The notes beneath the pieces were generated by a model, which searched no databases, was not told the DNA's origin, and saw only the letters and a program-made list of their open reading frames with translations. A stretch of 62,001 nt of DNA from an uncultured Gammaproteobacteria bacterium (lineage in GTDB: Bacteria > Patescibacteriota > Patescibacteriia > Patescibacteriales > UBA12465), in assembly GCA_964431235.1 (NCBI GenBank), contig CAYSJA010000010.1, positions 1 through 62,001 of the forward strand. The letters run 5' to 3'. The translations under genes were made by a program, and so were the position numbers. Position 1 is the stretch's first letter; each line of letters opens with the position of its first letter. This document shows positions 1-8,019 of this stretch, piece by piece.

Positions 1-201
1 AGATTGCTGACGCCGTTTCTTAGACTTCATATGAGCATGTCTAGCTTCATAACTACCGTCTACTCTAGAATTCCTAATTAATTCCCGCCCCAGTGATGAC
101 GGTGATCGTCCTAAAATCTGAGCAATATCTAAAAGTTCATAGTCTTGTCCAAGAAGCGGCTCTAGCGCAAAGCGTTCTTTTAAGTTAAGATGTTTATACA
201 T
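1..201 (-). CDS. IS30-family transposase, N-terminal part (truncated by window edge)
   Basis: Manual translation MYKHLNLKERFALEPLLGQDYELLDIAQILGRSPSSLGRELIRNSRVDGSYEARHAHMKSKKRRQQS matches the IS30 N-terminal HTH pattern (YxHLxxxER...IAxxLGRSxSxxxRExxRN...Y.A..A). Confidence 0.85.
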   Translation of the reverse strand, partial: MYKHLNLKERFALEPLLGQDYELLDIAQILGRSPSSLGRELIRNSRVDGSYEARHAHMKSKKRRQQS

Positions 202-294
202 ATACTCGTTTTGGTTAGCTGTTTATTAGATACATTCAGCATACACCGAAACGAGTATTTGTTGTATTAATTGCACTTCAAGCTTGAATTCAGC
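1..294 (-). mobile_element. Left end of an IS30-family insertion sequence (runs off the window start)
   Basis: Terminal-IR-like GCTGAATTCAAGCTTGAAGTGCAA (minus strand, 294-271) precedes an IS30-type transposase start at 201. A hairpin (202-215 / 245-258) lies over the translation start region. Confidence 0.8.
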
Positions 295-369
295 ACAAAT
301 GCTTGACTTTAATGAATTCTTGTGGTAATCTCATATAATTCACTAAATGTTCATTTAAAATATATTATC

Positions 370-585
370 ATGAAAAATAGTTCAATGAGATTAACTCTTG
401 TAAACATTATTGCTCTTGGATCTGCTTTTTCTTTAATTCGCAACTTACTATTTATATTTATAGACTCACCTGTAAACATACAAAGAGATGTTCATGGAAA
501 CCTCATAATGCTTGTTGGTTGCTTGATTTGGATGGCAGGAGTAAAGATTATAAATACAACCAGAGAAAAAAAGAAATTTTCCTGA
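370..585 (+). CDS. Small two-TM hypothetical membrane protein
   Basis: ORF 322..585, likely ATG at 370; two hydrophobic segments; TTGACT promoter-like element upstream and terminator downstream. Confidence 0.55.
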   Translation: MKNSSMRLTLVNIIALGSAFSLIRNLLFIFIDSPVNIQRDVHGNLIMLVGCLIWMAGVKIINTTREKKKFS

Positions 586-603
586 TAACCAAATGTTTAA
601 CAT

Positions 604-636
604 ACGACCTTTCACATACGAAGGGTCTTTTTTTAT
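604..636 (+). terminator. Intrinsic terminator
   Basis: GACCTTTC-loop-GAAGGGTC followed by a T run. Confidence 0.65.
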
Positions 637-1028
637 TGTCAATTTGTCAGCTTATCTGTATTTCTTATAGATTGTAACTATTTACACAATTTAGCTAACT
701 TTAGCTATCGGGCAAATAGTTTTCGTTAGATGTGTGGTTATAATCAAGTTAAGAGATAAAGATCTTGTTTGCTTTTTATCCTTTTAAAATATCAGTTTGG
801 CAAGTAATCTTTTTTCGGCCGGCTGGGCAGTCCGTCCGAAAAAAGATTATCCTTACAACAAACTAAAATATTTGAATTAAAAAGAATAAATAAACCATAG
901 CAAAACAGAGTTCACAAAAGTTACGGGCAATGTTTTGGGTAACTTTTTATTGTGGCTAATGTAAGCTAAAAAGTTTTGTGAATTTGGGGTAATTTTGAAG
1001 AAAATTACCTTAATCAAAAGAGATACTA

Positions 1029-1056
1029 TTGACAATTATATCCAATAGGATATAAT
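1029..1056 (+). promoter_or_regulatory. Sigma70 promoter with overlapping palindromic operator (TA autoregulation)
   Basis: TTGACA (1029-1034), 16 nt, TATAAT (1051-1056); perfect IR ATTATATCC-aata-GGATATAAT at 1035-1056. Confidence 0.8.
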
Positions 1057-1086
1057 ATGTTTATATAACATAAAATATAATTTTAT

Positions 1087-1512
1087 ATGGAGGTTGTTTA
1101 TTTTTATGATAAAGATTTAAAATACTGTCCAGTAAAAGAATATTTAAAACAATATTTACCAACCAATAAAGACAAAGAAAACATAATTCAGAGAAAGCAG
1201 AAAATATTAGCTGATATTGATGCTAAAATTGGTCATGTTAGAGAAAATAGGGGAAGACCTGCTCCTCCAATTTCCAAGCCATTGCATGGGTATAGTTGTT
1301 TTGAAATCTTAAATCCAAAAGACGCAAAGACGGTAATTAGAATTCTTTATTTCAGACATCAAGATAAAGTAGTTCTTCTTCACGCTTTTGAAAAGCCTGC
1401 TAATTATGATACAGAAAGAGAACGAAAAAAGGTTGATAAACAAAATCAAATTGGCGAAAAATATTTAAATATATTTAAATCAAATCCAAAAAACTATGAA
1501 AAATATGAATAA
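1087..1512 (+). CDS. Type II toxin, RelE/ParE superfamily (HigB/Gp49-like)
   Basis: V.FY....CPVKEYL N-terminus, KPLHGY..FEI, RILYF...VVLLHAFEK motifs; sits upstream of an XRE gene. Confidence 0.75.
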   Translation: MEVVYFYDKDLKYCPVKEYLKQYLPTNKDKENIIQRKQKILADIDAKIGHVRENRGRPAPPISKPLHGYSCFEILNPKDAKTVIRILYFRHQDKVVLLHAFEKPANYDTERERKKVDKQNQIGEKYLNIFKSNPKNYEKYE

Positions 1513-1891
1513 CAAAAAAATAAGTATAGATCCTATCGCTGAAGCTAGAAAAGGAAAATATTTTAATAAATATTCAAAAGAAGCAAAAGAAAGAATTAAG
1601 CTAGGTGTTGAAATTTATAACACCAGAGAAAACCTAAAAATCAGTCAGCAAGAATTAGCTAAACAAGCGGAAACCACTCAAAAAGTGATTTCTAGGATTG
1701 AGAATGGCGATGTCAATGTTGGTTTTTCTCTACTAAACAGAATAGCTGATGTTTTGGGATTTAATCATGAAAATTGGGGTAGAATTTTTAATTTTAATAC
1801 TCCATATAAATTTTTGTTTGTCGGAAGCAATACTATTAGCCATACTACAAAAATAGAAGAAAATGTCGCTTCTTTAAAAGTATCTTATTAA
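1505..1891 (+). CDS. XRE-family HTH antitoxin (HigA-like) with C-terminal extension
   Basis: SQQELAKQAETTQKVISRIENG HTH; overlaps the toxin stop; alternative start at 1496. Confidence 0.8.
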   Translation: MNNKKISIDPIAEARKGKYFNKYSKEAKERIKLGVEIYNTRENLKISQQELAKQAETTQKVISRIENGDVNVGFSLLNRIADVLGFNHENWGRIFNFNTPYKFLFVGSNTISHTTKIEENVASLKVSY

Positions 1892-1906
1892 TTAATAATT
1901 AAAAAT

Positions 1907-2356
1907 ATGAAAAATGTTTGGTCAATAATTTGTAATAATTCCTCTATAGATTCTCAAACTAACTTATTGAGTTTGTTTAACTGTATAGAAGAAATGAAAT
2001 TAGAAATAGACAAATCTAAAATGCCTAAAAGTGATAAATTAGTTATTCCTGCTAATCTACAACTTGTAAGTCTTTGGCTTATAGATGATTTTTCAAAGGA
2101 AAATACATCAGATATAAAACTGGAGCTTATAGACCCCACGGGCAAAGTTCTAAATGAGTTTCCTAATACTTTGAAATCCAAAAAGGGAGATAAAAGATTA
2201 AGGAGTATAACAAATATTCAAGGGATACAAATAACAGAAAGCGGAAGATATTATTACAGAATATCTCAAAAGAAAGGTAATAAATTTGAAGTAGTTTCTG
2301 AAACTCCTTTGGATATTAATTTGTCATATAAAATATTAGACAATATTAAAAAGTAA
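1907..2356 (+). CDS. Hypothetical beta-rich protein (DUF6941-like), third gene of the TA operon
   Basis: ICxxxxxDxxTNxxSLFN, LxDPxG and FxxxGxY-like motifs; 15 nt after the antitoxin. Confidence 0.55.
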   Translation: MKNVWSIICNNSSIDSQTNLLSLFNCIEEMKLEIDKSKMPKSDKLVIPANLQLVSLWLIDDFSKENTSDIKLELIDPTGKVLNEFPNTLKSKKGDKRLRSITNIQGIQITESGRYYYRISQKKGNKFEVVSETPLDINLSYKILDNIKK

Positions 2357-2411
2357 ATGAACAAAAACATATCTTGATTTTAATTAGAGGATATTAAAAG
2401 CTAAAAAAATT

Positions 2412-2963
2412 ATGCCGAATGTAATATTAGTCCACGGTAAAGACACTGACCCTACACAAAAATGGTATCCTTGGCTTAAAAACGAAGTTGAAAAGAAAAA
2501 TATTAAATTCTTTGCCCCTAAACTTCCAAAGGCCGATGATCCTATTCTTGATGAATGGTTAAGTGAAATAGAGAATTTACACCCCGACAAAAATAGTATT
2601 TTAATTGGACACTCTAGAGGAGGTGTTGCAATTTTACGTTGGCTTGAAAAACAACAAAAAGATGTAGAAGTTAAAAAAGTAATTTTGGTGGCTGTAAATA
2701 ACCCAGCTGTTAGTGAAAAAAATCAAATAAAAGATACTCACGGTTTTTACGAATTAGGAAAGTACAATTTTGAAAAAATAAAAAAGCATTGTTATAATTT
2801 TGTTGTTTTACATTCAGAAGATGATGAGTGGGTTCCTTTTTTAGCTGGTGAAGAAAACGCAAAAGGATTAAATGCAAAATTTCTTAGATTTAAAGACAGA
2901 GGCCACTTCGGAAAAAAACTACCAAAACCAGAAATACCAGAACTGTTAGATGAAATATTATAA
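2412..2963 (+). CDS. RBBP9/YdeN-family alpha/beta hydrolase
   Basis: VHG, WYPWL, GHSxG nucleophile elbow, SEDDEWVP, GHF catalytic His. Confidence 0.9.
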   Translation: MPNVILVHGKDTDPTQKWYPWLKNEVEKKNIKFFAPKLPKADDPILDEWLSEIENLHPDKNSILIGHSRGGVAILRWLEKQQKDVEVKKVILVAVNNPAVSEKNQIKDTHGFYELGKYNFEKIKKHCYNFVVLHSEDDEWVPFLAGEENAKGLNAKFLRFKDRGHFGKKLPKPEIPELLDEIL

Positions 2964-3134
2964 ATACCACCAACCACTGTATTGCCCCGCAAAAAGCGTT
3001 GACCATATGTTGCCCAGATGGTGATAAAAGTAGATATATTGAGTTGTTTTAGATAATTACAGATTAAACAATAATTACCTAATAATAGACAATAATTAGT
3101 ATATACGGGATTATTGTCTTTTTTATCTCTCTGT

Positions 3135-3157
3135 TTCGATTCCCGTTACCCGCTCCA
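3135..3157 (+). repeat. Duplicated 3' end of tRNA-Gly (attR-like site of an island extending left of the window)
   Basis: TTCGATTCCCGTTACCCGCTCCA = T-loop, 3' acceptor strand, U73 and CCA, with no 5' half upstream. TTGMCC direct repeats at ~2982-3017 resemble arm-type integrase sites. Confidence 0.8.
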
Positions 3158-3185
3158 AAGAAAAAAACAACCTTTTTAGATAGGG

Positions 3186-3932
3186 TTATTTTTTTATTGA
3201 TCTCCACATAACTTCAAACATTTCCTTATACATCTGTATTATATTTGGATTTTCAACAGATACAGCTATAATAGGTGGAACTAATTGATGAATTATAGCT
3301 CTTTTAGGAATAAAAACTAAGTTAGTTTTCAAATTTACTTCTTTTGGTAGTAATTTAACTTCTGAATTAAATTCTTGTTGTCTTTCAATATACTTCTTAG
3401 CTTCTTTGTTGTTCTGTAACAATATTTTTATATTAATATTAAGTTTAGCTCTTTTTTTAGTAAACTCCATAAAATACTTATTATCTAACTCAAACCATTT
3501 ATTAGCATTTGATATAATACAATAATCTTGATGTGCTTTTATATCTTTAATCATACTCTCATAAGCTGATTTTACTGACTCTAAACCTTCATAATATTTA
3601 ATCAAAGAATCATGACCATGCATGTTATATAAAGACAATAAGCCGGGTAAACTTTCTTTTAAAATTTCTTTTTTGCTTTCAACAATGCTTTTTAATTTTT
3701 CTGGGTTTTCTGAAACATAATACTGTTTCCAACCTTTTTGTTCAATGAACATTAATCCTTTTTGTTTTAAAGATTCAACCACCGAATACACAGTGGTTCT
3801 TTTAATACTAGCTTCTTTAGATAGCTTTAGAATTGTACTAGGGCCTACGGTGAGCCCCGCAACATAAACAAGAGCTTCATTATTGCTTAAACCAAAACTT
3901 GAAAGAGTTTTTATTAATTGATTTTTATTCAT
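3186..3932 (-). CDS. TrmB-family transcriptional regulator (wHTH + PLD-like effector domain)
   Basis: L..FGLS.NEA.VY...L, RTTVYSVVESLKQKGL, YYEG.E.V, FEVMW C-terminus. Confidence 0.85.
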   Translation of the reverse strand: MNKNQLIKTLSSFGLSNNEALVYVAGLTVGPSTILKLSKEASIKRTTVYSVVESLKQKGLMFIEQKGWKQYYVSENPEKLKSIVESKKEILKESLPGLLSLYNMHGHDSLIKYYEGLESVKSAYESMIKDIKAHQDYCIISNANKWFELDNKYFMEFTKKRAKLNINIKILLQNNKEAKKYIERQQEFNSEVKLLPKEVNLKTNLVFIPKRAIIHQLVPPIIAVSVENPNIIQMYKEMFEVMWRSIKK

Positions 3933-4098
3933 ATTTGTCTATTTTTTAGTCAACATTATTTATAGCTTTAGTATATATTAATATTGTATTAAATGCAACT
4001 ATACTAATCTTTGTCGACAAATTAGACATTATAATTTATATGTAGTAAATTAACATAATTAAATTGTTATTTAAAAGCTTAATAAAAGGAGGTAAAAA

Positions 4099-4221
4099 AT
4101 GAATTTAACTGAATGGTTTTCTCGTGATCCAGTAGGGGCTGGTATAGTAATTGGGATTATTGTAATACTTGTTTTAATAGTATTAGCAAGATTTGTAAAT
4201 TATTTGTGGTTTGATGAATAA
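4099..4221 (+). CDS. 40-aa single-TM microprotein
   Basis: AAGGAGGT SD then MNLTEWFSRDPVGAGIVIGIIVILVLIVLARFVNYLWFDE*. Confidence 0.7.
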   Translation: MNLTEWFSRDPVGAGIVIGIIVILVLIVLARFVNYLWFDE

Positions 4222-4240
4222 ATGTTATAAAAATCTGATT

Positions 4241-4339
4241 ATGGATAAAATTGTTTATGTTTTTATAGGATTATTATTTGCGCTTGCTTTGTTAATTGCA
4301 GGTCTTGGAATTTTCTTATGGGGAGATGAAGAAGTTTAG
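4241..4339 (+). CDS. 32-aa single-TM microprotein
   Basis: MDKIVYVFIGLLFALALLIAGLGIFLWGDEEV*; closely packed after the previous ORF. Confidence 0.55.
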   Translation: MDKIVYVFIGLLFALALLIAGLGIFLWGDEEV

Positions 4340-4348
4340 ACAATAAAG

Positions 4349-4459
4349 ATGGTTATTGCTAACACAGGATTAATTGTAGTAATTGAATTGGCCTGTATGC
4401 TTATTATTACTGGAGGTCTTCTTCTTTATAATATTTTATTTGATGAGTATGAGCCCTGA
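4349..4459 (+). CDS. 36-aa single-TM microprotein
   Basis: MVIANTGLIVVIELACMLIITGGLLLYNILFDEYEP*. Confidence 0.5.
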   Translation: MVIANTGLIVVIELACMLIITGGLLLYNILFDEYEP

Positions 4460-4547
4460 AATAAAAAATGTTATAAACCTCTTGATTTGATTTTTCCTCT
4501 AAAAAGAGGACATGTATAAAAAGCGCCAATATTTAGCAACAGCTAAC

Positions 4548-4581
4548 AAATGATCCCCATATTCAAAGGGGGTCATTTTTT
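4548..4581 (+). terminator. Intrinsic terminator after the microprotein cluster
   Basis: AAATGATCCCC-loop-GGGGGTCATTT followed by T run. Confidence 0.7.
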
Positions 4582-4582
4582 A

Positions 4583-4689
4583 TAAATATTTTTATTTCTT
4601 CTAATAATTTAATCCTAAAACAGGTTTGACTAATTTCCACTTTGGAGCTCAAAAACACAAAGACAACTTCGAAAGAGGTTGTTTTTGTT
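4583..4689. repeat. Cassette-junction repeat copy 1 (core 4616-4653)
   Basis: TAAAACAGGTTTGACTA-ATTTCC-ACTTTGGAGCTCAAA plus downstream hairpin. Confidence 0.9.
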
Positions 4690-4790
4690 TTATACCCTAA
4701 CGGGAAATAAAATTTCTGTGTTATTTATTGAGTTCTGGACTGGATAATGATAAAATTATATTAGCTATAATTTAATTAAAAGAGTTGACT

Positions 4791-5093
4791 ATGATTGATT
4801 TAAAAAAATTACAAAAAGATATATATCAAAATAAAATTGATAAAAAGTTTAATGTCAAAAATGTAGCTATGGAATTTCTTCTTACCCATGAAGAGCTATC
4901 AGAAGCCTATAGAGCTTATTATAAAAAATTACCAGACGTTGGTGAAGAGTTGGCGGACGTTGCTATATACTTATTAGGACTATCTGAAATATTAAACGTT
5001 GACTTAGAAAATGAAATACTAAAAAAAGTTAAAAAAAATAAAAATAGAATCTATAGACAGATAAACGGAGTGAACACCAGAATAAAAAATTAA
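4791..5093 (+). CDS. MazG-like nucleotide pyrophosphohydrolase
   Basis: EELSE...GEELADVAIYLLGL...KVKKN..R MazG-like pattern. Confidence 0.85.
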   Translation: MIDLKKLQKDIYQNKIDKKFNVKNVAMEFLLTHEELSEAYRAYYKKLPDVGEELADVAIYLLGLSEILNVDLENEILKKVKKNKNRIYRQINGVNTRIKN

Positions 5094-5110
5094 TAATATC
5101 TACTATAAAC

Positions 5111-5217
5111 AAATATTTCTAACTTTTTCTAATAATTTTATTTTAAAACAGGTTTGACTACCATCTACTTTGGAGCTCAAATATACAAAAACAACTTCAA
5201 AAGAGGTCGTTTTTGTT
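5111..5217. repeat. Cassette-junction repeat copy 2 (core 5144-5181)
   Basis: TAAAACAGGTTTGACTA-CCATCT-ACTTTGGAGCTCAAA plus the same hairpin as copy 1. Confidence 0.9.
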
Positions 5218-5353
5218 AGATAAAAATGAAAAATTTGACTATCATCTATTTAAGTATTACGGCTTACCATCCTTGATTTATTAGATGAATTATTATATCA
5301 TTAAATATCAATTAAAATAGTAAATTAACAACTAAATAATAGGAGGATTTAAA

Positions 5354-5995
5354 ATGGATAAAATTTTAATTACAGGCTTTGAGAGATTCGGAGACTACAA
5401 AGAGAATGTTACAGAAATTATAAGTAAAAAGATTTTAAGAATATCAAACCATTCTCTTGAATACATGATTTTTCCTGTCAGAATTTTTTCTAATGGAGCA
5501 GATAATTATGGTAAACAAATTATTGCCAGGGCAAAAGAAATTAATGCTAAAGCAATCATTTCCTTAGGAATGGGATCGGACATAAGAGGATTAAGAATTG
5601 AGTCACAAGCTATAAATTGGGTTGAAAATGCAAAATATTGTATATTGTCAGAACAAAAGAAAACCATTGATGATAGCTTAGATTCTAGGTCGACACTAAA
5701 GATAGACTTTGGAAAATGGAATATATCGAAAATTTTTTCCGCCTTTAAAGAAATGAATATAGTCCATGAATCAGAAATATCAATTGATGCCAACTCCTTT
5801 TGCTGCAATGCTTTGATGTTTAGAACATTACAAGCTATTCAAATCGAAGGATGTAAAATTCCTTATATTTACTTAAATCTTCCCTGTAGTCATCATGCTA
5901 TTGAGGGGCTTCCTGATTTTGATAAGAAAAAGCATCTTATATCAATATATGATGTTGAGGATATATTAACCATCCTTTCTATGTATTATATTTGA
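5354..5995 (+). CDS. Pyroglutamyl-peptidase I (C15) family protein
   Basis: ILITGFERFG, ISLG, RIE..A.N, SIDANSFCCN (cf. DAGxFxCN); AGGAGG SD. Confidence 0.8.
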   Translation: MDKILITGFERFGDYKENVTEIISKKILRISNHSLEYMIFPVRIFSNGADNYGKQIIARAKEINAKAIISLGMGSDIRGLRIESQAINWVENAKYCILSEQKKTIDDSLDSRSTLKIDFGKWNISKIFSAFKEMNIVHESEISIDANSFCCNALMFRTLQAIQIEGCKIPYIYLNLPCSHHAIEGLPDFDKKKHLISIYDVEDILTILSMYYI

Positions 5996-6053
5996 TACTT
6001 TTCAAAAAAATTAGTATAAAACGCTTTTACTAAAAGGCGTTTTTTCTATTTAT

Positions 6054-6134
6054 AAACATGTTTTTTAATATCCTCCAATATTTTAATTTTAAAACAGGTT
6101 TGACTAACTTCTACTTTGGGGCTCCAAAGAAAAA
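6054..6134. repeat. Cassette-junction repeat copy 3 (core 6090-6127); right boundary of the accessory region
   Basis: TAAAACAGGTTTGACTA-ACTTCT-ACTTTGGGGCTCCAA; GCTCCAAAGAAAAA is identical to 3152-3165. Confidence 0.85.
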
Positions 6135-6212
6135 CAGTCCAAAATTTTGAACTGTTTTTTATTAATAACAAAGTTTGTTTACCATTTATTTAAATTTTAA
6201 ATAAAAACCTCT

Positions 6213-6920
6213 TTAAAATTTTCCAAAATCATATTTTATAATCTTTTTTTTAATCCTACGATTAGTTAAAGTGAATATTCCCATTTTAAACCACTTCCAA
6301 CCACTAATAAAAAATCCTTCTTTCTGTATTCTTCTGGAAGAATAGAGCAGGGTACAACTCTTAATCATTCTAAATTTTCCTTGTTCTGCTATTCTAGCAC
6401 AATAATCACAATCTTCGGATAAAAAAATCTCTAAATCAAAACCTTTAATTTTTTGATGAAAAGAGCGACTAACTATTATAGCAGCTCCCATTGCCGCTGG
6501 ATATCGACCACGTTGTTTCAAAAAACAAATGAAATTAGAAATAAAAGAATAAATATTATAATACCAACGACTAGGGTTAAATCTTATATAAAAACTAGCA
6601 GCCGTTAACTTCCTATCAAAGAACTCTTTAACTGCTTTCTGTAAAAACCCGGGGGGTAAAACAGAATCAGCATCCAAAAATAAAATTTGCTCTCCTTGAG
6701 CAATTTGCGCTCCTTGATTGCGTTGAAAAGAAGGATGCTTTATTTTATCATTTATAATTAAACGAACTTTTTTTTCTACTGCTATTTTTTGCGTCAAATC
6801 TTTAGAACCAGCATCAGAAACAATTATTTCATAATCAGAAAAATTCTGATTTAAAATAGAATCAAGTAGCCGAGGTAAATATTTTTCTTCATTTAAAGTA
6901 GGTATTATTATAGATAGCAT
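6213..6920 (-). CDS. Glycosyltransferase family 2
   Basis: SIIIPTLNEE, DAGSKD, RNQGA, FLDAD, ED motifs. Confidence 0.92.
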   Translation of the reverse strand: MLSIIIPTLNEEKYLPRLLDSILNQNFSDYEIIVSDAGSKDLTQKIAVEKKVRLIINDKIKHPSFQRNQGAQIAQGEQILFLDADSVLPPGFLQKAVKEFFDRKLTAASFYIRFNPSRWYYNIYSFISNFICFLKQRGRYPAAMGAAIIVSRSFHQKIKGFDLEIFLSEDCDYCARIAEQGKFRMIKSCTLLYSSRRIQKEGFFISGWKWFKMGIFTLTNRRIKKKIIKYDFGKF

Positions 6921-6922
6921 AA

Positions 6923-7975
6923 TTAAAAAATTGTTTTAGCCAATTCCCAATATTCAGGATTGCCATTCTTATATTGATAATACCACCACTCAACCCCCCA
7001 GAGATAGGCTTTTTTAAAGCCAGTATTTATACCGTATTGTAAATTAGCTTTAAATTGCTCTAGATTAAAAGACTTATCAATTTCTTCTTCGGAAAGATAT
7101 ATTATACTTCCTTTAGGAACCCAGGGCTCAGCTTGAAGTTCTATAATTATTCTCTTATCTTTCGGTATATCAACTAAATAAGCTTTTAAAGGATAGAACC
7201 AGGAGGGAATTGGATAACGGATATATCCGGTCCACTTACCCCAAACTACACGATAAACTGTGCTTCCAAAAACATCAGCTAACTTTGCCTCCTTTCGCCA
7301 AAAACTAAGCTCTCCGGTAGCAGAAATAATTACTGGTCTATCATCTAAAGCTTTTATAGTTTCTAACTCTTTTTCAAAGAACCATTCATCAATAGGTGGA
7401 CAAATTCCAAATTCATTAAAAAAGGGTTCATTTTCCAATTGCCAAGCTATAATTGAATCATAATCCTTATAATGATTAACGGTGGCCATTAACATTCTAG
7501 CTAGTTTACCTTTAGTTGACTCCATTGTTTCTTTATTAATCCAAGTCGGAGCATGACATTCCGGCCAACGTGGTAAACGCCAACCAATATTAATAATGAA
7601 CTTCACTCCTCTTTTTTCACCTTCGTGTATTATGTAATCATACTTTGAAAAATCAAATACCCCTGGTTCTTTCTCAATTTCATCCCAATAAACAGGTAAT
7701 CTTATTTCTTTTACCTTTAAATTATCCAATATTGCTAAATAAACTTCCTGCCAATCAAGGCCTATTTCTTGACAAAACTTAGTAGAAAAAGTAACACCGA
7801 AAAAATCTGAATCATGCTTCAAATCACGTTTAAGTGGGTAGTTCTTAGCGATTTTCAAAAAATAGACTAATCCAAAAACTAAGATCAAAATAACAACTAT
7901 TGTTAAAAATCTTTTATTTTGGCAAAACCAATTAGGATGATGATGAAAAATATTTTTCAATCCCTTTAAATCCAT
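6923..7975 (-). CDS. Membrane-anchored glycoside hydrolase (clan GH-A, GH5/GH42-like)
   Basis: N-terminal TM, RLPVYW..IE..PG.FDF, WQLENEP acid/base, ELQAEPW, LWG.EWW. Confidence 0.75.
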   Translation of the reverse strand: MDLKGLKNIFHHHPNWFCQNKRFLTIVVILILVFGLVYFLKIAKNYPLKRDLKHDSDFFGVTFSTKFCQEIGLDWQEVYLAILDNLKVKEIRLPVYWDEIEKEPGVFDFSKYDYIIHEGEKRGVKFIINIGWRLPRWPECHAPTWINKETMESTKGKLARMLMATVNHYKDYDSIIAWQLENEPFFNEFGICPPIDEWFFEKELETIKALDDRPVIISATGELSFWRKEAKLADVFGSTVYRVVWGKWTGYIRYPIPSWFYPLKAYLVDIPKDKRIIIELQAEPWVPKGSIIYLSEEEIDKSFNLEQFKANLQYGINTGFKKAYLWGVEWWYYQYKNGNPEYWELAKTIF

Positions 7976-8019
7976 AAAAATAAAACTAATGATTATAATT
8001 TTTTAGATCTATAATCTGC

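Follow-up and report, generated by a model that had tools for sequence, protein, structure and literature searches.

Among described systems, the islands at the ssrA gene of Dehalococcoides are the closest to the locus presented in this work, a row of small gene cassettes with three direct repeats in a 62,001-nt stretch of DNA (contig CAYSJA010000010.1 of assembly GCA_964431235.1, positions 1 to 62,001; hereafter the window) from an uncultured bacterium which GTDB places in the Patescibacteriota (UBA12465). According to the part of PMC3146451 that describes them, the Dehalococcoides islands lie in tandem downstream of the small-RNA gene, have its 3' end or repeated copies of that end as their boundaries, and have a serine integrase, DsiB; the gene of a serine recombinase of about 540 amino acids adjoins attL in reverse orientation, the repeat is preceded by a conserved motif that belongs to the element and does not resemble the target gene, and some islands without an integration module were proposed to be mobilisable in cis. 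In our locus the repeats are, with a probability of about 0.72, the junctions of tandem integrase-less cassettes inserted site-specifically at the 3' end of a tRNA-Gly gene, most likely by a large serine recombinase (LSR) acting in trans. The host is an ultra-small bacterium of the Candidate Phyla Radiation (CPR) type, and the cassettes are probably moved by a serine recombinase whose gene crosses the same junction. A cassette unit consists of a right arm (usually a hairpin and T-run that would terminate transcription arriving from upstream), one to four genes, a 66-nt arm, here called L, and the tetranucleotide GCTC. In the window a tRNA-Gly fragment comes first, and then cassettes A (TrmB and three peptides), B (MazG-like) and C (Peptidase_C15-like), each of them closed by an L, and finally the chromosome; the whole tRNA-Gly(tcc) is on another contig, which ends exactly at GCTC.

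As far as the Dehalococcoides source covers these points, both systems have tandem elements at the 3' end of a small-RNA gene, a serine integrase at attL and members without integrase. The Dehalococcoides islands use tmRNA and a 20-bp repeat, whereas here the gene is tRNA-Gly and the bases shared with it number four in L-type junctions and 23 in a second, L2-type junction. Here, too, the units are of 0.5-1.6 kb and often carry a single gene, the open reading frame (ORF) of the recombinase crosses the crossover, and the hosts are genome-reduced bacteria of the CPR type. Tycheposons of Prochlorococcus, in the sections of 10.1101/2020.12.28.424599 devoted to them, use tyrosine recombinases in 910 of 937 cases and carry their own integrase and often replication genes. 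Like them (10.1101/2020.12.28.424599), our array is a tRNA-linked island in a streamlined genome, with older elements pushed inward, partial-tRNA spacers, degenerate remnants, defence or adaptation cargo, and a heterogeneous element content, which for tycheposons was seen in cultures. Unlike tycheposons as described there, most units here have neither integrase nor replication genes, and the spacer is a non-tRNA arm of 66 nt. Composite SCCmec and pseudo-SCC elements, moved by CcrAB, have cassettes of tens of kb, target the protein gene rlmH/orfX, and their recombinase ORF does not span the site; the likeness lies in tandem serine-recombinase cassettes at the 3' end of one conserved gene, including members that have no recombinase and are flanked by the same repeats. 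What is new in the present locus is the size of the cassettes, an arm of 66 nt that does not derive from the tRNA, a recombinase ORF that crosses the site, and the group of hosts. Our full-text literature search, which covered articles without their supplements, found nothing linking serine recombinases or tRNA-Gly islands with CPR/Patescibacteria, and the words tRNA, integrase, recombinase, cassette and integron are absent from the main text of a paper on gene exchange in Patescibacteria.

The window is contig C10 of a 43-contig, 96%-complete genome of 778,398 bases (G, C and L followed by a number are our handles for genomes, contigs and loci). Its three direct repeats are located at 4589-4694, 5117-5222 and 6063-6168, and their minus-strand translations are exactly those written down in an earlier, sequence-only reading of this DNA. 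A 16-nt core of the repeat has exactly three exact occurrences in the window; three weaker matches with three mismatches each turned out to be unrelated to the repeat. No fourth copy was found in the remainder of the 778,398-base genome, all of which was searched, and more than 20 further copies are present in related genomes and metagenomes. Alignment with those copies resolved the repeat unit into L, GCTC and a variable right arm. L is conserved and free of indels, its last 34 nt being almost invariant, and the right arm varies between copies, nearly always forming a plus-strand hairpin followed by a T-run. Matches to L or to a right arm occur in 31 of 148 genomes of the family, and a profile of the L peptide, run on 316 genomes of the order, matched 17, in which a single genome had as many as six copies. 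A TTGACT hexamer in L was considered as a -35 box and dropped, as there is no matching -10. Coordinates of all features are collected in Table 1.

Table 1. Features of the repeat array and its surroundings in the window
Feature	Position	Strand	Remark
IS30-type transposase N-terminus (HTH_38)	1-201	minus	contig begins inside it
Gp49/HigB-like and HTH pair	1087-1891
L2 arm, conserved junction module of about 200 nt ending in tRNA-Gly fragment	2950..3132	plus	modules of relatives 90-93% identical
tRNA-Gly 3' fragment, 23 nt (3' half of T-arm and 3' strand of acceptor)	3133..3155	plus	GCTC at 3152-3155
Cassette A body	3156..4583		hairpin R0, TrmB-like regulator, three membrane-peptide ORFs
TrmB-like regulator	3186-3932	minus	Pfam TrmB
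Three tandem ORFs, 36-42 aa	4099-4459	plus
L arm, copy 1	4584..4650	plus	crossover GCTC 4647-4650
Cassette B body	4651..5111	plus	right arm (hairpin and T-run) 4651-4694; MazG-like ORF 4785-5093
L arm, copy 2	5112..5178	plus	crossover GCTC 5175-5178
Cassette C body	5179..6057	plus	right arm about 78 nt; Peptidase_C15-like ORF 5354-5995 (Pfam); terminator 6018-6043
L arm, copy 3, attR	6058..6124	plus	crossover GCTC 6121-6124
Chromosomal flank B'	6125..6212	plus	hairpin and spacer to glycosyltransferase 3' end
Glycosyltransferase (GT2) gene	6213-6920	minus

GCTC is the 3' end of tRNA-Gly and covers the last acceptor-stem bases, the discriminator and the initial C of CCA. A whole tRNA-Gly was not found in the window by ARAGORN; the tRNA-Gly end that had been proposed for it is present as a 3' fragment, whose 23 nt agree without a difference with the ends of the tRNA-Gly genes of this genome. 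On the minus strand this fragment reads L-W-S-G-stop, as the sequence-only reading had seen and in the same frame, although it lies at 3133-3155, outside the stretch holding the three repeats; behind it come a hairpin and the TrmB-like gene. The genome's tRNA-Gly(tcc) is located at the extreme end of contig C36 and its tRNA-Gly(gcc) at the extreme start of C40, and both contigs break at GCTC. In relatives, where whole tRNA-Gly genes end at GCTC, the next elements are a right arm, then one gene or several, then L-GCTC, a pattern repeated up to six times (G009); a whole tRNA-Gly (gcc or tcc) stands upstream of the array in L048, L049, L050, L052, L053 and L132. The possibility that L is a decayed 3' half of a tRNA was dropped, L being too conserved across families and 5 nt longer. 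Among contig ends of the window genome (C9, C13, C21, C33, C37, C43, C20/C30, C10/C40) there are several overlaps of 91-99 nt. One of them joins the end of C10 to the far end of C40, which makes the tRNA-Gly(gcc) contig the right-hand neighbour of the window.

The cassettes of relatives, each closed by L-GCTC, recur as discrete units in different surroundings. The Pep_C15-like unit of the window (5175-6143) has a counterpart in G044 with 81% identity over 974 bp, which extends there from the GCTC of an entire tRNA-Gly(gcc) to an L-GCTC. Cassette A, the TrmB unit, is 89.5% identical over 1060 bp to G072, there standing behind an L-GCTC junction. G068 and G072 share a Fic unit with 85% identity, which stops at the GCTC belonging to L. 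GCTC is the terminus of each left arm (tRNA, L and L2) and always the point of joining, and every class of right arm combines with two or more kinds of left arm. Hairpins of the type seen in window copies 1 and 2 stand also after tRNA-Gly (G048, G072, G079, G044) and after L2 (G072, G068); hairpin R0, placed after the tRNA fragment in the window, follows L in G072; the G009-type right arm stands after tRNA-Gly(tcc) in G009 and after L in four metagenome contigs; and the 3' end of an LSR gene serves as right arm behind tRNA, tRNA fragment or L. Modules with 90-93% identity to the L2 of the window occur in G072 (L049), G068 C19 (L055) and G068 C9 (L047), each followed by GCTC and a hairpin; L2 may be an arm of another element class, or an RNA. 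A module related to L2 precedes the LSR in G212. Cargo of the arrays comprises Fic, AbiEii, DpnI/DpnII, AIPR, NYN, MerR, TrmB, MazG, Peptidase_C15 and similar proteins, and none of the 57 ORFs of the relatives' arrays encodes an integrase or recombinase.

The interchange of arms also bears on the view that L is a functional RNA or regulatory unit (a small RNA, a promoter with terminator or a mimic of the tRNA 3' end) which was duplicated together with its neighbours. Such a unit would fit the plus-strand hairpin and T-run at each unit's end and the TTGACT hexamer, yet it would leave unexplained the GCTC break common to tRNA-Gly, L and L2, the interchangeable partners and the empty sites described below. 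Copy 3 has no plus-strand gene downstream, an Rfam scan of 3000-8000 (E<=10) gave chance-level matches with none near the gathering score, and RNAalifold on 20 L copies found 0 conserved pairs. We regard this explanation as very improbable.

Empty sites were found in relatives. In four loci of the same genus, each in a separate genome, the end of the GT2 gene lies 48-88 nt behind tRNA-Gly(tcc), and in 11 further loci this distance is 420-735 nt. The spacer of the empty site is similar to the stretch that follows copy 3 on its right (6125..6212), so copy 3 is attR and copies 1 and 2 are internal junctions. The sequence-only reading had come to the same assignment: it took copies 1 and 2 for junctions, which we now see as element arm joined to element arm, and copy 3 for attR, in which an element arm meets a flank homologous to that of the empty site. 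Its more general claim of att-type cassette junctions at the tRNA-Gly 3' end agrees equally with the arrays and the empty sites of relatives. Several att-separated elements, some of them integrase-less, thus stand behind one small-RNA gene and relatives have the empty site, as expected of tandem accretion.

Arrays also differ within a population. Contigs holding the window stretch were present in four public runs (X1-X4) from two studies. In X1, which is possibly the source sample, the depth was 13.9 for the window island, 27.9 for an alternative contig and 42.6 for the backbone; the alternative contig, of 888 nt, joins the tRNA end to the copy-3 L via other DNA. This split means that at least two array alleles coexist. 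The cassettes may still be mobile. X2 showed a similar split, and X3 and X4 were less clear. No RNA run holding the window stretch was found among the public runs searched.

A recombinase fitting the junction is encoded in related genomes. In G102, of the same genus, tmRNA, tRNA-Leu and tRNA-Gly(gcc) are followed on the opposite strand by a 512-aa LSR with Resolvase, Recombinase and zinc-ribbon domains, whose ORF enters the tRNA end and stops as ...INPPIWSG*. G212, of another family, has an LSR gene 88% identical to it, which lies behind a tRNA-Gly fragment, encodes a protein of 512 aa with Resolvase, Recombinase and Zn-ribbon domains and ends ...PPLWSG*. Both ORFs thus cross the crossover and end two codons past it, inside the tRNA-Gly end. 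Five database homologues of the G102 enzyme are all 512 aa long and all end in WSG, and the closest ones carry the NCBI label Patescibacteria. An LSR end at WSG*, foreseen from the letters of the window, is therefore found in G102 and G212, where the gene is intact, and in these homologues. The last 80 nt of the LSR gene are present as a right arm in seven of 316 genomes, behind a whole tRNA-Gly in four (G102, G146, G088, G041) and behind a tRNA fragment in two (G212, G081); in G050 neither is recognisable upstream. At least three of the seven have lost the gene proper (G146, G088, G081). Metagenome contig L132 has the order tRNA-Gly(gcc), a 2.1-kb cassette, L-GCTC and an LSR 3' remnant, and on its minus strand the last 31 LSR codons (...NEFINPPLW) run in frame into SSKVKVSQTCFRIKLLEGVKNIVLII-stop, the recombinase frame continuing into the SSKVKVSQTCFRIKLLEGVK peptide of L.

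Behind the LSR of G102:C4 lies an island (L120 4586-18208) with AAA_25, macro-domain, AAA_15 ATPase, MerR, Peptidase_C15 and a 102-aa ORF, cargo types that are partly those of the window, without L arms. BLAST found no attR for the G102 element that would contain L, L2 or a tRNA fragment; a possible degenerate tRNA-like junction, recognised by eye only, precedes the Pep_C15 gene. Scans of viral contigs with the G102 LSR and with the peptide alignment gave no relatives.

The genome of the window has two other LSRs, on contigs C42 and C35. The first (C42:233-1904, L088) is a protein of 545 aa, the last 13 codons of which are antisense to the 3' end of tRNA-Glu(ttc), an analogue in the same genome of an integrase ORF crossing the crossover; its relatives (56-83% identity) overlap tRNA-Glu, tRNA-Arg(tct) or tRNA-Ala(tgc) likewise in many genomes of the family, 92 of 148 of which have a match at E<=1e-10. 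The second (C35:1-2431, L089) is 31% identical to the G102 enzyme, lies beside a large, unannotated 423-aa ORF and is cut off by the start of the contig. It may be the enzyme that acts on the array in trans, with its 3' end and att site unassembled; no overlap of contig ends linking C35 to a tRNA-Gly contig was found.

The geometry of the junction points to the same class of enzyme. The tRNA-Gly end and L have only GCTC in common, as would be expected of an LSR whose attP and attB share little beyond the crossover bases. A 10-mer of L agrees with the tRNA T-arm at 8 of 10 positions, its distance from the crossover being 5 bp greater; without gaps the two arms likewise match best at the 5-bp offset (14/26) and not in register, and a 6/7 heptamer at the +5 shift was reached by only 1.45% of shuffles. 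For phiC31 integrase the attB position bound by the zinc-ribbon domain is described as 5 bp nearer the centre than the attP position (10.1101/2025.05.02.651858). A distal motif 5 bp further out in L agrees post hoc with this, and the part of L that hardly varies, located by column entropies at about -17 to -27 when counted by hand from an assumed crossover axis, falls on the zinc-ribbon footprint reported in that work. Beside the crossover, 30 bp of L look like a serine-integrase attP half-site. Since L and tRNA share only GCTC, the proximal 30 bp look attP-like and the LSR ORF of relatives crosses the crossover, the enzyme acting on L would most likely be an LSR in trans.

Several results weigh against this explanation. 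Pfam searches of the window ORFs showed no recombinase in the array or beside it, and none was present in any fetched L-bearing locus; an LSR with the three domains stands next to the junction in G102 and G212, and in neither the window nor these loci. The G102-type LSR was not found in the window genome (E<=1e-80), and it is present in seven of the 316 genomes and in 0 of the 17 that bear L. G079 has an L junction and gave no match to the C42-type LSR query (E<=1e-10), and no L was found in the G102 island. A simple terminator scan flagged 6018-6043 and none of the right-arm hairpins. The population evidence consists of contigs and not reads, showing alternative alleles but neither excision nor circles, and the half-site argument was made post hoc on an assumed axis.

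Single-gene cassettes with no integrase nearby resemble integron arrays, or attC clusters. Integrons employ the IntI tyrosine recombinase, an attI site and the folded single-stranded hairpins of attC. The present arrays share with them mostly single-gene, promoter-poor cassettes, related closing sites and a recombinase outside the cassettes; unlike integrons, they yielded no IntI, attI or attC hairpins, and the insertion point is a tRNA 3' end. A tyrosine recombinase using the junctions, in an integron-like or Xer/dif-module-like manner, would also agree with the imperfect palindrome around the crossover (..TTTGGAGCTCCAAA.. in several copies) and with the one full-length tyrosine recombinase of the genome, yet that gene is on another contig (C30), and no IntI-like gene was found near any array among the window ORFs and the 57 array ORFs. 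The tRNA and L have four bases in common, and tRNA-targeting tyrosine integrases usually share a longer core with the tRNA. No attC fold was seen, L being a linear conserved sequence without indels and with 0 conserved pairs in 20 copies, and the sole recombinase seen at this crossover is a serine recombinase. A tyrosine recombinase is for us improbable.

A further proposal is that L is translated. In phage Mx8 the tyrosine integrase of a complete phage has an ORF which crosses the att crossover at a tRNA 3' end. In a similar manner, the sequence-only reading derived the att sites from the 3' end of a recombinase gene: in full, L would be the present or recent C-terminal tail of an attP-spanning LSR, about 25 aa long (..SSKVDGSQTCF[KR][VI][KR]LLEEVK..), which integration into tRNA-Gly would swap for SG-stop, as in Mx8 IntP/IntX. 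As an addition to the cassette explanation we place this somewhat below even odds. As with Mx8 IntP/attP, integration could change the integrase C-terminus; unlike in Mx8, the enzyme is a large serine recombinase, and the alternative, longer C-terminus expected of the excised form was observed only in the L132 remnant junction (31 codons and the L frame). A partition of the SSV type was not seen, as two codons are exchanged and the L core shares four bases with the tRNA.

The codon tests were made on 22 L copies from 15 genomes. The sole open frame of L is the one in which the LSR ORF reaches the crossover, with two stops in 22 copies of 22 codons compared with 27-79 in the other five frames, and L132 joins ...NEFINPPLW to SSKVKVSQTCFRIKLLEGVKNIVLII-stop in this frame. 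Conservation of L extends about 36 nt beyond what a half-site would need and fades where stops appear. Over the whole arm, column entropy showed no significant 3-base periodicity (p 0.32-0.44), and pN/pS over 20 codons was 0.49, compared with a column-shuffle median of 0.685 (p 0.058). The ten codons beside the crossover gave 0.97, with no coding signal, and the distal ten 0.36 versus a median of 0.58 (p 0.014; with one copy per genome p 0.011); in these, four Leu codons are used at two Leu positions and the other exchanges are of K/R and V/I type. The codon conservation that had been claimed for the repeat, and the dN/dS test over many copies suggested for it, therefore hold for the distal ten codons (p about 0.01) and not for the proximal ten or the whole arm. 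On the other side, the plus-strand frame of the same phase scores equally low (0.37), so the statistic does not name the strand, and transitions in a purine-rich tract yield K/R/E exchanges without protein selection. The first 13 residues of the peptides as originally given (TKTTSFEVVFV..) do not belong to a recombinase; they are the antisense of the plus-strand hairpin and T-run, wholly different in other copies.

Neither an intact recombinase nor any protein over 95 aa with the SSKV..SQTCF tail was found in the 316 genomes of the order (matched frames are of 20-95 aa). The tail was not found by a word search of 5.8 billion proteins, and a profile search of 1.84 billion representatives returned only four ORFs of 50-70 aa and four repetitive chance matches. 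This lack of an intact tail-bearing protein would be expected even of a real tail, because integrated forms dominate assemblies. Of the two recombinase ends anticipated next to tRNA-Gly, the one in WSG* is thus found and the one in SKVxxSQTCF is not, and the derivation of the att site from a recombinase gene agrees with the LSR crossing the crossover and with the in-frame join of L132, but lacks an intact recombinase with the tail. Further points tell against a translated tail: L132 keeps only 31 recombinase codons and is therefore a junction of two array members, with a 1-in-3 chance of being in frame; all five close LSR homologues end in WSG*; the G212 enzyme is preceded by a tRNA fragment and not by L; the LSR 3' arm stands behind tRNA-Gly or its fragment in six of seven genomes and not behind L, neither being recognisable in the seventh (G050); and the likely attR of G102, read by eye, would add only about four residues. 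That the minus-strand frames are independent small protein genes, as the 50-70 aa ORFs ending in the L peptide produced by gene callers would suggest, is close to negligible: three copies have a stop so close (0-2 codons) before the conserved peptide that a start would find no room, and the upstream parts are unrelated between copies.

The cassettes and the sequence to their left have further features. The L2 arm is the right end of a preceding island segment containing the IS30 fragment, the Gp49/HTH pair, DUF6941 and a serine hydrolase, and window positions 1-2963 are probably further island cargo upstream of the L2 junction; DUF6941 and the serine hydrolase come after the Gp49/HTH pair. Each of the three short ORFs of cassette A (88-90% DNA identity in G072) encodes a single hydrophobic helix with acidic C-terminal residues, and a similar small membrane ORF forms a separate cassette in G072 (L048 9675-9876). 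The MazG-like ORF of cassette B has a Pfam E of 3.4e-5, below the curated cut-off, and a 71% DNA match to the MazG ORF of the G068 C19 array. In cassette C the conserved right arm (5179-5255) comprises a hairpin and a second TTTGACTA-type motif, in direct orientation and about 80 nt from the copy in L, which may be an accessory binding site or a promoter; it is present also in right arms of L047, L049, L052 and L067. PADLOC on the proteins of the window island gave only generic HTH and weak Csa3-like matches.

CPR/Patescibacteria have tiny genomes, and their gene exchange is little understood. At this locus genes of accessory and defence type (Fic, AbiE, restriction-modification, MazG-like and similar) are stored behind one tRNA gene in a compact manner that can be repeated, and the array alleles differ within a single natural population. 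If the LSR and the 66-nt arm are confirmed, they would provide short, defined att sites from an uncultured lineage and a rare integrase whose own C-terminus depends on the integration state. A still bolder proposal, unlikely as a whole, is that bacteria of the CPR type may run an integron-like cassette economy through a trans-acting LSR, in which single-gene cassettes, with two att arms and nothing else besides the gene, would be taken up and rearranged where tRNA-Gly ends in CCA. The ORF of this LSR would span attP, so that excision would restore, and integration remove, a conserved amphipathic tail of 25 aa. If this were true, the tail would be a built-in switch of directionality or stability.

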